A stretch of 64,000 bases of DNA from Candidatus Heimdallarchaeota archaeon. Lineage in GTDB: Archaea; Asgardarchaeota; Heimdallarchaeia; JABLTI01. The stretch covers positions 96,001 through 160,000 of the forward strand of contig DXJV01000084.1 of the NCBI GenBank assembly GCA_019056785.1, in the 5' to 3' direction. This document shows, in pieces, positions 53,036 through 64,000 of this stretch. Position numbers and translations under genes: made by a program. A model generated the notes under the pieces. The model was given only the letters and a program-made list of their open reading frames with translations. It did not search any database and was not told where the DNA came from. Within the stretch, counting starts at the first letter, position 1. Each line of letters begins with the position of its first letter.

Positions 53036-53479
53036 TCATTGATCACTAAGAATAACATTCTCAATGTCAAAATGCCGTTTCGCCAGAAGGCGGGCGCGTT
53101 CGATGTTTCTGCCATCTTTTCCGATCGCTAACCCTCTTTGCCCTTGCTTAATTGTCACAAATGCAAGGTCGGGTTTATTTTTCCTCCGGACGACAACGAC
53201 TTTCTCAACGGTAGCAGGTACGAGGGCATTTTTTATGAATACCTCCGGGCTGTCATCGTCTTCGATAATTTCGATGTCTTTTGCCAATGCTGACTTCAAT
53301 TTTTTAACATTGATTCCTTGTTTACCAATAGCTGTACCAATAGACCCTCGTTTAACTACAAAGATTATCCGATCCATTTTTCTATCGATAATGCAGTCTT
53401 TCGGACTAACCTTTGTAATATTCACGAAGATATTCATTGTTTTTAGTTCATCGATAGAAAGCTTAATTCCACTTGACAG
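53036..53479 (-). CDS. nusA: transcription factor NusA (archaeal, KH domains)
   Basis: AIGKQGINVK and AIGKDGRNI KH motifs; conserved N-terminus IKLSIDEL implies a start at CTG 53479. Confidence 0.9.
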   Translation of the reverse strand: MSSGIKLSIDELKTMNIFVNITKVSPKDCIIDRKMDRIIFVVKRGSIGTAIGKQGINVKKLKSALAKDIEIIEDDDSPEVFIKNALVPATVEKVVVVRRKNKPDLAFVTIKQGQRGLAIGKDGRNIERARLLAKRHFDIENVILSDQ

Positions 53480-53518
53480 TTTTGTACACGACCTGCTTCT
53501 TTCCTAATTGTTTTTCTC

Positions 53519-53827
53519 TTATTTTTTCTTTAACGAGCGGAGAATTTTACTGTCGCCCGGGTCATACACTGAGATTGCTGAAACAACATGACCACGCCCA
53601 CATAATGCCCCCAGATCATAGCCTGAGCCACTAAACTCGACGATAGGAATGTTGGCAAGCTTAGCATAATATTCAATCTGGCTTTTTTTCTCAGTAGGGC
53701 AATTTTTTGCGAGAATGATAAGTTGTGCTCTCCCAAGTTTAGTTGCTTTTATGGTTCTGTTAATCCCATAATCGCGTTTCCCGGTTCTAGCAATAATTTG
53801 AATTTCTCGGTTTAAATCGATTGACAT
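53519..53827 (-). CDS. rpl30e: 50S ribosomal protein L30e
   Basis: RTGK..G, LIILAKNCP, IEYYAKL, LGALCGR, DPGDSKI. Confidence 0.95.
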   Translation of the reverse strand: MSIDLNREIQIIARTGKRDYGINRTIKATKLGRAQLIILAKNCPTEKKSQIEYYAKLANIPIVEFSGSGYDLGALCGRGHVVSAISVYDPGDSKILRSLKKK

Positions 53828-53919
53828 ATTACTTTACTCCAACAAAATGTTTTCTCAAAGTAATGATTAATACCTTTTAATTTGCAAGGGAATTTAAAGT
53901 ATTTCTTCGCATTGAAAAC

Positions 53920-57836
<3,917 letters not shown>

Positions 57837-57849
57837 TTTTCTAGTCTCC

Positions 57850-60800
57850 TTATGCTTGGTCCTTTAATTTTAATCTAGGAGCCATTCCCAGCGAAATGAG
57901 TTCTTGTAACAGTAATTTAAATGCATAACTCATAACTACTGGAGCAACATCTGCCTCGCCTTTACAAACAGGGCAGAAGTACTTGTCACGATTGCGGTCA
58001 TAGGTGGCAAGAACACCACATTTCCCACAAACGTTTATTGTCGTTTTATCAGATTCATCTAATAATCGTTCTTTTAGAAGCAAGGCAGCACCATGGCCGA
58101 CAAGACAATCACGTTCCATTTCACCAAAACGCAGACCACCTTCTCGAGCGCGTCCTTCTGTTGGTTGACGTGTGAGAATTTGTACAGGCCCACGAGATCT
58201 GGCGTGGGTTTTGTCTTTAACAAGATGATGGAGCTTTTGGTAATAAGCTATACCCATAAAAATGTCGACGTCATATTTTCGGCCGGTAATACCATTATAC
58301 ATTGCTTGTTTACCATAATAGTTCAAACCAAGTTCTTTCAAGCCCTTAACAAGCTCGTCAGAAGAAATGCCCTCGAAAGGTGTTGCATCAACTGTGATTC
58401 CTTTCTTCGCGCCAAAAATAGCTGCCATTGTCTCGAGGATTTGACCAATAGTCATTCGAGAGGGGATAGCATGACAATTAACGATGATATCAGGAGTAAT
58501 GCCTTCCGCTGTAAATGGCAAATCTTCTGGCGGGGCGATTAAACCAATAACCCCTTTCTGTCCATGTCGAGAGGCAAATTTATCACCAAGTTCAGGAATA
58601 CGCATGTCCCGCATTTTGACTTTTACTAAACGATTGCCGTCGCTGGTTTCAGTCAGAATAACCGTATCAACAAATCCCTCTTCACTATGGCGCATGCTAA
58701 TGCTTGTTTCATGACGAATGGGTGCGCGAACTTCGAATTCACTATACTCTTCAAGAAAACGAGGTGGAGAGGTTCGGCCAATAATCACTTCATCGCCTTT
58801 AATTTGGCTCTCTGGCTCGACAATGCCATCAGCACTAAGGTGCACATAGGCTTCCGGTGGGCGGAATCCACGAACATCTTTGTCAATGCGTTCAAACTTG
58901 TCTTCTTGCCCCGCAGGATAGCGACGCTCTTCAGCCTCATATCGCCTAAAGAATGCTGAACGAGCAAGGCCACGTTCAATGGAATGTTTGTTAAAGATGA
59001 TGGCGTCTTCCATGTTATATCCTTCATAACTCAGAAGAGCAATAACCATATTTTGTCCTGCCGGTCGCTTATCAAAATTAATAATATCCATTCCATGTGT
59101 TTTTACAAGTGGTTTTTGGGGATAAAAGAGAATATGAGAGCGTGTATCAACACGTAACCGATAATTTGCAGCATACATTCCTAATGCTTGTTTAGCCATT
59201 GCAGACTCGTAAGTATTACGGGGGGATTGGTTGTGCTCTGCAAAAGGAATTAAGGAGGCGCAAATGCCAAGAATTGAACTTGGAGCAATCTCTAAATGGG
59301 TGTAGGAACTATCTTTCTCAAGGTCCTCGGGTTCCATGGCGATATAGGAACTCTCTTCTTCTTCTGCATCGAGATATTCAACAAAACCACGCTTTATCAA
59401 ATCATTCCAAGTCCAAGCGCCATTCTTCAACTTCTCGACATGTTTTTGCTCGAGTTTTAACTTGCCTTTTTCGACAATTAAAAGGGGGCGCCGTACTCGG
59501 CCGTGATCACAATTGATCTGAATTTCTTCAACGTCTTCATAAAAGTTAACATTGACTTCAGGACTAATAAGCCCTTTTCGTCTTGCCTTTTTAATACTTG
59601 CAACGAAATTTTTGGGATCGGGATGAGAGCCTAACAGGCGGCCGTTCAAGAAAACCTTGCATGCATCTGTAGACTTCATGTTTTTTAATTCATTCAAATT
59701 CAAAGAATAAAGAAAGTCTTCAATCTCCTTTTCATCAGTCCCCACACTAATGTAAGCTTCTAAAGCAAGGTTTTTCACCAAGCCACAGTTCGGGCCTTCG
59801 GGCGTCTCGCTTGGGCAAATCTTACCAAAATGAGTAGGATGAAGGTCACGAGCCTCAAAATGGGGTTGTGTCCTACTTAAGGGGCTAACAACACGCCGCA
59901 AGTGGCTCAAAGTGGAAATGTAATTGGTTCTATCGAGCAATTGGCTTACACCGGCTTTTCCACCAACCCAATTGCCAGTAGCTAAAGCGTGGCGCAACCG
60001 CTCGGTAATTACATCAGCACGAACTGCTGTTTTAATATTAGGGGTTCGCCCACGAATGGCTGTTCGTTCCAATTGATATTTAATGTCGCGGCAAAGGCTC
60101 ATAAATGCAACACGAAAGAGGGAAATAAGTGACTCACCAGAGAGTTTCAAACGTTTATTCGCATAATGATCTTTATCGTCTTCTTGTCTCTTGCCCAATT
60201 CAAGTTCAAGCAATCTTTGAGCCATCTGGCCCAAAAAGTAGGCTTTCCCAATACGGTCTTCTTCTGTCGTTCCAATGTGTCGCAAGAGGTAGCGGTCCAA
60301 AATTTCACGCGCACGCTTTATACGGTAATCTATTGTTTGCCCCACAGCGACACGTTTTCCAATAAAATCAAGAGCTTTTTCCTCATCCGTAATTTCGGAA
60401 GCTTCATCAAGAGAGGGAATGAGCTCTTTTCGGACCTCCGGATCATCAGAAACGGCTTCCACAATAGCTTTATCGGAAGAAAGGCCAAGAGCTTTTAACA
60501 AAACAGCAAAAGGAATTTTACGAGGAACAGACGGGAAACTGACACTCAAGCTACCATCACGGGAGCGCTCCATCGTCACAGGAGCACGCACACCTTGGGC
60601 CGTACTAAATACCTTTGCCATACTGGTTGTGCTTCCGGTCTTGTGTTCAATTAAAATACGGTTTGGCGCCAAATCTTCTTGGGTGACAAGCACACGTTCA
60701 CTACCATTAATAATAAAATAACCACCAGGGTCGTTGGGGTCTTCACCTGCTTTAATCAGTTCTTCATCGGTCATGCGACTTAAGGGGCAGACTTTCGATT

Positions 60801-61191
60801 TGAGCATGATGGGCATTCGACCAATAAACACAGGCGAAGTTTCTCGAGGAATCTCATTCCCTGCCTCATCAACTCGAACAGGGGTTAACTCGAGATATAA
60901 GGGAGCAGTATAGGTCAAATTCCTTATTCGGGCTTCGCTTGGATAAATATTATTAAGGGAACCATCCGCTTCACGGACATTTGGGGACTCCATATAAATC
61001 TTGTTTATCTTGACATAGTAATTTGGGATCTCCGGCTTAATGCTGCCAATCTCTTGGACAACCTTTTGCATGCCATTTTGGATAAATTCATTATAACTGT
61101 CAAGATGTTGACGAACAAGCCCCAGTTCCTTTACCATAGATTCTATAAGAATCCATCTATCTTCTATAGACAATTTATAAGTTTCAGACAT
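57850..61191 (-). CDS. rpoB: DNA-directed RNA polymerase subunit B (Rpo2, unsplit)
   Basis: GYFIINGSER, ETPEGPNCGL, GDKFASRHGQKG, GLRFGEMERD, C-terminal Zn ribbon. Confidence 0.98.
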   Translation of the reverse strand: MSETYKLSIEDRWILIESMVKELGLVRQHLDSYNEFIQNGMQKVVQEIGSIKPEIPNYYVKINKIYMESPNVREADGSLNNIYPSEARIRNLTYTAPLYLELTPVRVDEAGNEIPRETSPVFIGRMPIMLKSKVCPLSRMTDEELIKAGEDPNDPGGYFIINGSERVLVTQEDLAPNRILIEHKTGSTTSMAKVFSTAQGVRAPVTMERSRDGSLSVSFPSVPRKIPFAVLLKALGLSSDKAIVEAVSDDPEVRKELIPSLDEASEITDEEKALDFIGKRVAVGQTIDYRIKRAREILDRYLLRHIGTTEEDRIGKAYFLGQMAQRLLELELGKRQEDDKDHYANKRLKLSGESLISLFRVAFMSLCRDIKYQLERTAIRGRTPNIKTAVRADVITERLRHALATGNWVGGKAGVSQLLDRTNYISTLSHLRRVVSPLSRTQPHFEARDLHPTHFGKICPSETPEGPNCGLVKNLALEAYISVGTDEKEIEDFLYSLNLNELKNMKSTDACKVFLNGRLLGSHPDPKNFVASIKKARRKGLISPEVNVNFYEDVEEIQINCDHGRVRRPLLIVEKGKLKLEQKHVEKLKNGAWTWNDLIKRGFVEYLDAEEEESSYIAMEPEDLEKDSSYTHLEIAPSSILGICASLIPFAEHNQSPRNTYESAMAKQALGMYAANYRLRVDTRSHILFYPQKPLVKTHGMDIINFDKRPAGQNMVIALLSYEGYNMEDAIIFNKHSIERGLARSAFFRRYEAEERRYPAGQEDKFERIDKDVRGFRPPEAYVHLSADGIVEPESQIKGDEVIIGRTSPPRFLEEYSEFEVRAPIRHETSISMRHSEEGFVDTVILTETSDGNRLVKVKMRDMRIPELGDKFASRHGQKGVIGLIAPPEDLPFTAEGITPDIIVNCHAIPSRMTIGQILETMAAIFGAKKGITVDATPFEGISSDELVKGLKELGLNYYGKQAMYNGITGRKYDVDIFMGIAYYQKLHHLVKDKTHARSRGPVQILTRQPTEGRAREGGLRFGEMERDCLVGHGAALLLKERLLDESDKTTINVCGKCGVLATYDRNRDKYFCPVCKGEADVAPVVMSYAFKLLLQELISLGMAPRLKLKDQA

Positions 61192-61684: not shown

Positions 61685-62641
61685 ATGCAAAGAAGTCAAG
61701 AAGTAGAGCAGCAAGTAGAAAAAGTATTAATCACCGGCTTGGACAATGCCGGAAAGAGCTCTATAGTGGACATTCTGAATTACTTGCCAACAGAAGCAGT
61801 TTTGCGAAGAACGCCAAGTCAAGAATTAGAGATTTTTAACAAATCCTTTATGAAAAAAGAATTCGTTTTTTTTATCCCACCTGGACAGGAGACTTTACGG
61901 CAAACAGAATTACACGGAACAATGAAAGGGGAATACTTTAGTAACGTTTCAACCTTTGTATTCGTCGTTGATGCAGCAGATAAATTGCGAGTACAAGAAG
62001 TTAGGCAAGAACTAAAATGTTCCTTGGAGGATCTTTTGGCGTTTTCTCCCGACTGTAAACAATTCTTAATCTTTGCCCACAAACAAGATTTAGAGGGAGC
62101 ATTAACAAGTTTCGAGCTCGCCGAAAAAATAGTAGAACCACTCCAACAGCAATTTCCTTGCTTGAAAAACAAATTCAAGCTTTTTGAAACAACAATCATT
62201 AATCCTGAGACAATTTATGAACCATTCTTAAAAGCAATCGCAAAACATGTTGGGCTTAATCGAATCGATTTCGACCAATTAGCAGAATGGATACGAGAGC
62301 AAGTAAAAGCAAAAATTGTCTTGATAACAGACGCTGAGGGATTACTGGTGGGAGAAGCACAAAAAGGGCAAGAAGACACCATCATTTATTCAGCATACAT
62401 TGCGAAGATCTTTTCAGCGACAGATGAATATCAAAGTGACATTTTCAGAGAAGGAATAAAAATAGCCATTCTCGAAGAGGAAAAGAAAGAAAACTACAGT
62501 ATAGTCTCGAGAGTCAATTGTTCAAAAAAGGATTACCTAGCCCTTTTTATCGGCAATCCAAAAGTAAACCTAGGATTAGCAAGATTAATCACCAAAAAAG
62601 GATTGGAAAGATTAGAGGTGGCATATCAACGGTACCGATAA
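61685..62641 (+). CDS. Rag/Gtr-like small GTPase fused to a C-terminal roadblock domain
   Basis: GLDNAGKSS, PPGQ, YFSNVSTFVFVVD, HKQD, ETTI; roadblock-like IVLITDAEGLLVGE. Confidence 0.78.
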   Translation: MQRSQEVEQQVEKVLITGLDNAGKSSIVDILNYLPTEAVLRRTPSQELEIFNKSFMKKEFVFFIPPGQETLRQTELHGTMKGEYFSNVSTFVFVVDAADKLRVQEVRQELKCSLEDLLAFSPDCKQFLIFAHKQDLEGALTSFELAEKIVEPLQQQFPCLKNKFKLFETTIINPETIYEPFLKAIAKHVGLNRIDFDQLAEWIREQVKAKIVLITDAEGLLVGEAQKGQEDTIIYSAYIAKIFSATDEYQSDIFREGIKIAILEEEKKENYSIVSRVNCSKKDYLALFIGNPKVNLGLARLITKKGLERLEVAYQRYR

Positions 62642-62660
62642 TAGAAAGGAGATAGAAAAA

Positions 62661-63656
62661 ATGGATGGCAAAAATGAAGCGTTTTTATTAGTGGAATTTG
62701 ACTCAATGAAAGGGCCATTGATTAGAATGGTAAGGCCAAAAAAGGCGACTTTAATTAAGAAAATAAATGAAAAGAAATTGCTAATCTGGATCATCCGTGC
62801 GACAGAATTCTCAGTTCAAAGATTAGGGGAATTAACCGTTTATGCTAAAGCCCTTGCATTGGACGACCCGAACTTTAGCCGGAAAAAAAGGCAGTTTGGG
62901 GTAGCATTTTTAACGCAACGCACGTTAGAATTAACAGTGGCACAAAAGTTACTCGAGTTATTGATCCAAAAATGCAAAAAAGAAGCAAATAACCAAGGAT
63001 ATTTTTTAATGTTACAAAAATTTTTGGAAACACTCGAGTTTGCTCAAGTTCAACTGGATGCAAATGCACTTGTAACCGAACCCGAAGAGAAAGAATTTGA
63101 TTCAAATAAACTGCAAATCTTCAATAAAATAACCTTTGAATTTAAAGAGCTTGCTAAGGAAATAATTGTAAATGCTACAAACACCACAGACCAACAAAAT
63201 AAGCAAAATAATGCACCGCTCCAATTTGAAACGAGAAAAATAAAAGCTCAAGTTGAGCTACAAGGAGAGCGCCCTCAAGATTTGAGCTTAGCATTGAACC
63301 TTTTTTTGCGTATATTGGAGAGATTACCGAAAGAAGAGTTGCAGACGAGAATTATTGCGGCAGTTGAATATCTCGACAGATTATTGTTCGAGAAAGTAGA
63401 TATCGAGTATTTCCTTTCATTTCTACATTACTTTATTTCAATGGAAGAATTCACTATCAGCGAATTTAAAAAAGAAGAATTGATCGCCCAACTGAAGAAC
63501 CTTCAAGAAACACATGGGGAATGGATAAAATGCTTAGTAACAGCAGAATTCACAGGGAAAAGCCTGGAACATTTTTTTAAAATAACGGGCTTTCGAAGAG
63601 AAGGGCTAGAATTACTAATTGATTTGCTTTTCATCAAAATAATTGCTGTTCATTAA
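62661..63656 (+). CDS. NPRL2/uDENN-like longin domain protein
   Basis: FLLVEFDSMKGPLIRMVRP and LDDPNFSRKKRQFGVAFL match NPRL2 longin motifs. Confidence 0.65.
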   Translation: MDGKNEAFLLVEFDSMKGPLIRMVRPKKATLIKKINEKKLLIWIIRATEFSVQRLGELTVYAKALALDDPNFSRKKRQFGVAFLTQRTLELTVAQKLLELLIQKCKKEANNQGYFLMLQKFLETLEFAQVQLDANALVTEPEEKEFDSNKLQIFNKITFEFKELAKEIIVNATNTTDQQNKQNNAPLQFETRKIKAQVELQGERPQDLSLALNLFLRILERLPKEELQTRIIAAVEYLDRLLFEKVDIEYFLSFLHYFISMEEFTISEFKKEELIAQLKNLQETHGEWIKCLVTAEFTGKSLEHFFKITGFRREGLELLIDLLFIKIIAVH

Positions 63657-63701: not shown

Positions 63702-64000
63702 TTGACCAGCAAAAGGGATCTGACATCACTCCCCTCACTAATGGTTCCAGGACAACCGGCAATCCTATTCAATGATAAGAAAAAAGGAAGAACATTAGTA
63801 GTCGCAGACCTGCACATTGGCTATGTCTACAATCAAAATAAAAGAGGGATAATTATCCCGATGGCGAGAACAGCAGAAGAAGAACTGCTGAAGCTGGTAA
63901 AAAAACTCGAGCCAAGAAGAGTCATTATTTTAGGCGATTTTAAAGATGAAATTTATGGCGCGGGCAACCCGTTAACCGGCAGAATTTTTTCTTTTATCAA
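63702..64000 (+). CDS. metallophosphoesterase (calcineurin-like), 3'-truncated
   Basis: Manual translation: TLVVADLHIGY ... VIILGDFKD; open to the window end; not in the ORF track. Confidence 0.8.
   Translation, partial: MTSKRDLTSLPSLMVPGQPAILFNDKKKGRTLVVADLHIGYVYNQNKRGIIIPMARTAEEELLKLVKKLEPRRVIILGDFKDEIYGAGNPLTGRIFSFI

Follow-up and report, generated by a model that had tools for sequence, protein, structure and literature searches.

A pair of neighbouring genes in a Heimdallarchaeota genome raises the question of whether an archaeal longin protein acts as GAP of the Rag-like GTPase encoded directly upstream of it, and whether such a pair is ancestral to TORC1 nutrient signalling. The window, i.e. 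the whole stretch of 64,000 nucleotides analysed here, comes from contig C84; the genome comprises 2.87 Mb and is 82.5% complete.

Gene layout and genomic neighbourhood

The two open reading frames are located on the plus strand at 61685-62641 (318 aa, GTPase) and 62661-63656 (331 aa, longin protein), with the coordinates and the 19-bp spacing given in an earlier note on this DNA. All motifs quoted there are found: GLDNAGKS, FIPPGQ, YFSNVSTFVFVVD, HKQD, ETTI, the EFDSMKGP segment and DPNFSRKKRQFG. The gap between both genes contains a Shine-Dalgarno-like AAAGGAG, which holds GGAG (62645..62651, plus strand). As had been claimed, the pair is divergent from rpoB (57850..61191, minus strand; given as context only), and the intervening region comprises 493 bp. 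Transcription of the pair may extend beyond these two genes: the gene for a calcineurin-like metallophosphoesterase starts in the same orientation 45 bp past the longin gene (63702..64000, plus strand). A metallophosphoesterase gene is present 3' of the pair in all eight family loci examined, and none was seen beside the Njord-type pairs described below. A promoter and terminator scan of the locus, performed with a procedure not built for archaea, yielded a chance-level result.

The minus-strand cluster at 53036-61191 comprises an undivided rpoB, rpoA', rpoA'', rpL30e and nusA. This is a standard archaeal arrangement, and relatives have the same order. Just outside the window, the EF-1-alpha gene (L022:9555-10946) appears split into ORFs of 92 aa and 363 aa, whereas relatives have a single ORF of about 470 aa. 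The split would reflect a frameshift or an assembly error.

The Rag-like GTPase

The 318 aa protein (61685..62641, plus strand) is a Rag-like GTPase-roadblock fusion that belongs to a subfamily with Ser at G2 and an Asp-less G3 (xPGQ), as judged from its ORF, Pfam, Foldseek, profile searches and a tree. Pfam assigns 67.6 bits to Arf (E 1e-18) and 56.9 bits to Gtr1_RagA (E 3e-15), and the roadblock match is weak. The structural model (pLDDT 80.5) comprises a G domain and a roadblock domain. Its top Foldseek matches are RagA/Gtr1 (E 8e-19), and the best PDB profile match is LokiRagO (8yl2), which extends over nearly the full length (E 2e-29). The C-terminal roadblock domain spans about aa 196-317 (62270..62635, plus strand) according to the secondary structure of the model; profile matches in this region are LokiRagO, MglB, roadblock/LC7, Gtr1 and RagA. 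Foldseek, Pfam and the placement in the Rag clade (see below) agree with the earlier description as a Rag-like GTPase with roadblock. An Arf identity, which would correspond to the top Pfam score, is ruled out by architecture, fold ranking and tree. A RagC-like identity is not favoured, as the PDB profiles give RagA/Gtr1 and no RagC/Gtr2 among the matches listed. Neither the GTPase nor the longin protein contains a transmembrane segment; the hydropathy maximum of the latter is 1.2.

Three of the nucleotide-binding motifs are intact. In the G1/P-loop GLDNAGKS (aa 18-25; 61736..61759, plus strand) G18, G23 and K24 are invariant across the subfamily. G4 is HKQD with the Rag-type His (aa 132-135; 62078..62089, plus strand) and G5 is ETTI, of the TSI type seen in Rags (aa 168-171; 62186..62197, plus strand). 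At the G2 position, where RagA, Arf, Rab and canonical Asgard Rags have Thr in the alignment, the protein carries Ser45 (61817..61819, plus strand); Ser is found there in 29/29 xPGQ sequences. G3 is IPPGQ (aa 64-68; 61874..61888, plus strand). In the subfamily alignment P66-G67 is found in all 29 sequences and the catalytic Gln68 in 28 (one has His), and Asp in none. This means, the G3 Asp is indeed replaced and the Mg site atypical, as had been noted before, and the G2 Thr is replaced too. Since Ser45 and IPPGQ stand in place of the G2 Thr and G3 DxxGQ of the canonical Mg site, the protein is classed as Rag-like rather than as a canonical Rag. In switch I, R41 and R42 are invariant in all 36 GTPases of the family.

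The longin protein

The product of the second gene (62661..63656, plus strand; model pLDDT 79.2) is a longin protein with a GP motif and an arginine loop. Searched alone, its sequence yields nothing significant in Pfam or phmmer. The model is more telling. VIA-align and Foldseek assign aa 4-137 (62670..63071, plus strand) to a longin domain of the NPRL2/FLCN/SMCR8 class. The best VIA-align match is NPRL2 (8fw5_B) with Z 12.2 and an rmsd of 3.1 over 132 aligned residues; Npr2 (8adl_S) and a Loki longin (8yqg), each with Z 11.3, are within the tie margin of NPRL2, and FLCN follows with Z 9.8. The top four Foldseek matches are chains of the GATOR1 complex. In the fold comparison that the earlier note had proposed, a longin fold is therefore found, and RagA/Gtr1 is best for the GTPase.

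Identity between the longin and NPRL2 amounts to about 15%. When distant members are included, the profile places the GP motif and Arg74 opposite Gly20-Pro21 and Arg78 of NPRL2, a weak match with E 0.57. The GP motif, Gly18-Pro19 (62712..62717, plus strand), is invariant in 17/17 sequences of the joint Gerd and Njord alignment. Arg74 (62880..62882, plus strand), the candidate arginine finger, is present in 35/35 homologues, among which Lys75 and Arg77 are as invariant. As in the GAP-longin class, GP is located between strands 1 and 2 and the Arg loop before strand 5. In the first alignment that combined both lineages, R74, EFD, GP and D69 show no variation. One member of the joint alignment matches NPR2 in Pfam at E 0.002, and one Njord-type orthologue just reaches the cut-off for Folliculin in Pfam (23.4 vs 23.3 bits). 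In the genome itself no match to PF06218 (NPR2) was obtained in a search whose control remained below the cut-off. The proposed NPRL2-like longin with an arginine is corroborated by the top fold match, by the GP motif and by the invariance of Arg74, which is in register with Arg78.

The longin domain is followed by a middle beta/alpha domain (aa 142-244; 63084..63392, plus strand) with five strands and then two helices in the model, and by a C-terminal helical domain (aa 248-330; 63402..63650, plus strand) that, according to model and alignment, is well conserved in the family. The C-terminal part superposes on that of NPRL2 partially and only at an rmsd of 11-12. The C-terminal halves of Njord longins do not match that of the window's family. 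The middle domain was considered as a second longin replacing NPRL3. This is not supported, as it has neither a profile-profile match to the N-terminal longin nor a usable Atlas hit. No second longin gene adjoins the pair.

Other GP longins are encoded elsewhere in the genome. At G000:C31:23763-27395 (L243), four co-oriented genes encode two tandem GTPases, a 270-aa GP-motif longin-like protein and a Rab-like GTPase. The tandem GTPases have long C-terminal extensions, and one of them is degenerate and lacks DxxG and G4. This gene set resembles the roadblock/GTPase/DENN operon of Liu et al. On the same contig (78845-80191, L244), the gene for a GP longin of 448 aa that has Arg in a loop adjoins a receiver-domain gene; its homologue in G008 (L061:676-1929) is located between receiver genes near a small GTPase. 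The product of a further locus, G000:C11:137587-138348 (L245), is longin-like with 253 aa and a GP motif, but an arginine loop is not obvious in it. It is a candidate for a non-catalytic partner of the window's longin.

Conservation of the gene pair

The pair is adjacent, in the same order and in single copy in 11/11 genomes of the genus (Gerdarchaeales-type) and on further contigs. The accession prefix JABLTI01 of one relative presumably corresponds to Gerdarchaeales. For the genus, this adjacency is hardly informative, as synteny extends over the entire region. More informative are 8 Njord-type genomes from three other families, identified among 400 genomes of the phylum and labelled after the one that is named Njordarchaeota. 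In each of them, a PGQ-type GTPase-roadblock gene is directly followed by a GP longin gene. The flanking genes differ and comprise eIF2-gamma and rpL15e, DHH, CGI-121 and endonuclease dU. A functional tie of the pair to the RNA polymerase operon as a general rule is therefore rejected: this link is specific to the window's family, since the Njordarchaeota pairs adjoin other genes.

The position of Arg74 is in register in six of the eight Njord-type partners, shifted one residue earlier in G288 and without Arg in G283, where the gene pair nevertheless persists. The position of Arg77 drifts between R, K and H across lineages. The Njord-type partner GTPases have no Arg at the positions of R41 and R42. 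Hence, no switch-I Arg is conserved across both lineages, which argues for an Arg supplied in trans.

Six Njord-type genomes (G283, G292-G296; L224-L240) each encode at least 3-5 members of the PGQ/G2-Ser Rag-like subfamily. A GP longin is encoded beside just one copy in each of them, and no longin was detected in the examined flanks of the other PGQ paralogues. Another Asgard family has a PGQ-type Rag-like GTPase (L241:3993-5015, G397) with no longin within the 10 kb examined.

Phylogeny and ancestry

A G-domain tree was calculated from 69 sequences, in which RagA/Gtr1 is represented by eukaryotic genes from metagenomes and RagC/Gtr2 is left out. The GTPase falls within the Rag clade together with eukaryotic RagA/Gtr1 (100/99) and apart from Arf, Rab and MglA; without the G3 columns, this clade has an SH-aLRT support of 96. 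The PGQ-type sequences (n=29) form one clade (99/93) that includes the Njord-type partner GTPases. In the best tree, it is sister to a group of eukaryotic RagA and canonical DxxG Asgard Rags (97/90). Removal of the G3 columns leaves the topology unchanged; support for the PGQ clade falls to SH-aLRT 71, and that for the group of RagA and DxxG Asgard Rags is 91. A single clade of xPGQ and RagA is compatible with the AU test (p-AU 0.36). The MglA-type GTPase of the genome branches away from the PGQ subfamily. This rules out an MglA origin of the PGQ motif, and the motif shared with MglA looks convergent. The G2 Ser and the loss of the G3 Asp in the PGQ subfamily are derived.

The genome encodes further Rag-like GTPases, some of which score higher on the Rag profile and are nearer to RagA (C47, C74). 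The product of G000:C47:65911-66807, the genome's best Gtr1_RagA profile match, lacks GKS/T in its degenerate P-loop as well as the G2 Thr and the G3 Gln and, judged by these motifs, is likely a pseudo-GTPase.

The question of ancestry is separate from that of mechanism. The earlier note had proposed a proto-GATOR1 ancestral to TORC1 signalling, i.e. a direct forerunner of RagA-GATOR1 and nutrient signalling. We consider this quite improbable. The longin has NPRL2 as top fold match, the GTPase is located inside the Rag clade, and a joint clade of xPGQ and RagA survives the AU test. However, the best tree joins RagA with the canonical DxxG Asgard Rags; RagA has kept the Thr and Asp whose replacement marks the PGQ subfamily as derived, more RagA-like paralogues are present in the same genome, and the pair was found in 4 of 33 families among the 400 genomes. 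Searches for TOR kinase, Raptor and DEPDC5 gave no match in the 82.5% complete genome, with positive controls below the cut-off as well. Asgard archaea have been reported to encode NPRL2-like longins and to be devoid of a TOR kinase domain (Liu et al., 10.1101/2020.10.19.343400).

Predicted complex

The predicted complex of GTPase and longin with GTP and Mg reached 0.44 vs 0.01 for the best control, which lends weak support to the interaction. NPRL2-RagA and FLCN-RagC complexes have already been solved, so that the pass may reflect likeness to these or their memorisation by the model only. At least 87% of the contacts are shared between runs, and partner pLDDT values are at least 78. In the benchmark, the mark was reached by 58 of 80 solved and 2 of 110 mismatched pairs; only 7 of the 80 solved pairs but both passing mismatches reached it at values of at most 0.60, so that a score in this range ranks as weak.

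Proposed mechanism and alternatives

The best explanation, to which we assign a probability of about 0.55, is that the longin is the GAP of the neighbour-encoded GTPase, with Arg74 provided in trans, Gln68 in cis and an altered Mg site. The GTPase would bind GTP through its intact G1, G4 and G5 motifs. By analogy to Rags, the roadblock domain probably dimerises or scaffolds the GTPase. Docking of the longin on the G domain would resemble that of NPRL2 on RagA; following the same homology, Arg74 would be inserted toward the gamma-phosphate and Gln68 would position the attacking water. With Ser at G2 and no Asp at G3, the rewired Mg site probably makes for weaker binding of Mg/nucleotide or for slower intrinsic hydrolysis.

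Taken together, a cognate GAP activity of the longin appears plausible. In its favour are the longin fold, for which NPRL2 is the best-scoring structure, the retention of the pair in three further families with different flanks, partner GTPases that form one clade, and the retained Gln68. The GP motif and Arg74 are the two marks of GAP longins (PMC12290439). Against it, the sequence likeness to NPRL2 is not significant alone (E 0.57), and Arg is shifted in one Njord-type genome and absent from another. Eukaryotic GAP longins act as two-longin heterodimers (PMC12290439); the lack of a second longin beside the pair may thus count against a GAP. Judged from its motifs, a GTPase lacking two canonical Mg-site residues could be catalytically impaired, and the longin could serve other Rag-like GTPases of the genome. 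Furthermore, 26% of co-oriented neighbours have gaps of at most 19 bp, and the region is syntenic in the genus.

It is rather unlikely that the proteins bind each other with the longin as a scaffold, effector or exchange factor, an RKKR loop that contacts a partner, membrane or nucleic acid, and a slow or constitutively loaded GTPase. K75 and R77, which are invariant like R74 within the family, the G2 Ser, the missing G3 Asp and the Njord-type pair that persists without Arg would fit such a role, and most longins are GEFs or platforms (PMC10933270). Across lineages, however, R74 alone stays arginine, whereas R77 drifts. PMC12290439 describes the GP motif as confined to GAP longins. Gln68 is retained in 28 of 29 sequences.

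Less likely still, the longin is a GAP for another GTPase, and the xPGQ GTPase is joined through roadblock domains to a canonical Rag paralogue, which it presents to the longin as the passive, RagC-like subunit of a heterodimer. We take GKSSIQ and PGQ to recall RagC/Gtr2, and more RagA-like candidates for the second half are available in the genome. Eukaryotic Rags are heterodimeric, and GATOR1 touches both subunits (PMC10316081). This arrangement is at odds with the subfamily profiles, which give RagA/Gtr1 and no RagC/Gtr2 among the PDB matches listed, with the retained catalytic Gln, and with the lack of a second GTPase gene adjoining the pair.

We consider it very unlikely that the GTPase has an MglA-style arginine finger of its own (Arg41/Arg42 in switch I) that the longin merely positions. 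Both residues are invariant in the family, and the Asp-less G3 resembles that of MglA (PMC4316618). The Njord-type partners, however, lack Arg at these positions, the MglA Arg directly precedes the G2 Thr where Pro is found here, and the tree places the subfamily with the Rags, away from the genome's MglA-type GTPase. That the genes are linked without any interaction of their products is equally hard to credit. Synteny in the genus covers the entire region, yet three other families have kept nothing but the pair, in different neighbourhoods.

More tentatively than the cognate GAP activity itself, we propose a single-subunit longin GAP that manages without NPRL3 and DEPDC5, uses an NPRL2-type Arg finger and acts on a Rag-clade target with a rewired Mg site. 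The pair might date to the common ancestor of Gerdarchaeales-type and Njordarchaeota-type Asgard archaea; the partnership would then predate eukaryotes and be TOR-independent.

Significance

Asgard longins with GP motif and Arg finger (PMC12290439) and GTPase-roadblock Rag-like proteins (PMC10933270; solved structures) are already known. Our literature searches found no paper on the fixed GTPase-longin pairing or the Ser-G2/Asp-less subfamily, and none on LokiRagO/LokiRagM. To assign regulators to Asgard GTPases by gene layout has been described as difficult (PMC10933270). The locus provides a small, soluble two-protein candidate pair, conserved in two lineages and with an obvious mutant, R74A. 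If the GAP activity is true, the Rag/longin-GAP mechanism would date to before eukaryotes, and the pair would show how Mg and GTP are handled by a GTPase without G2 Thr and G3 Asp. Even then, it would alone be no proof of nutrient sensing or TORC1 ancestry.

Comparison with known systems

MglA-MglB shares with the window's pair a roadblock association and a G3 that lacks Asp and ends in PGQ (PMC4316618). MglA is a single-domain GTPase, in group 1 with an intrinsic Arg directly before the G2 Thr. In contrast to MglA, the GTPase studied here has a fused roadblock, an HKxD G4, no Arg before G2, and groups with the Rags. FLCN-FNIP, a RagC/D GAP, and C9orf72-SMCR8, an Arf GAP, belong to the same GAP-longin class (FLCN Z 9.8). 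Unlike them, the window's longin has no detected DENN domains or heterodimer partner gene, and the scores are below that of NPRL2.

The closest parallel in eukaryotes is NPRL2/Npr2 on RagA/Gtr1 (7T3B, 8FW5, 8ADL). GATOR1 uses NPRL2 Arg78 as its catalytic residue (PMC10316081), and the longin (Z 12.2) has the GP motif and an Arg in its register. The target also corresponds, with G domain and roadblock, HKxD and the switch-II Gln. In contrast to GATOR1/SEACIT, no NPRL3/DEPDC5 partner, TOR or Raptor was found here, identity is about 15%, and the activity is predicted from sequence and models; in contrast to RagA/Gtr1, the GTPase has neither the G2 Thr nor the G3 Asp.

LokiRagO (8YL2) and LokiRagM (8ZLA, 9M28) have the same layout of G domain and roadblock; Rag-like architectures of this kind have been published for Asgard archaea (PMC10933270). 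LokiRagO carries the canonical G2 Thr and WDLGGQ, whereas the window's GTPase belongs to the xPGQ/G2-Ser clade, which is sister to the canonical Asgard Rags. The window's longin falls into the class of GP/Arg-finger longins that has been described in Asgard archaea including Heimdallarchaeia (PMC12290439). In the passages of this source considered here, no choice is made between ArfR and Rag as target GTPase, and neither operon nor synteny is mentioned. Here, by contrast, such a longin has a fixed Rag-like neighbour in two lineages.
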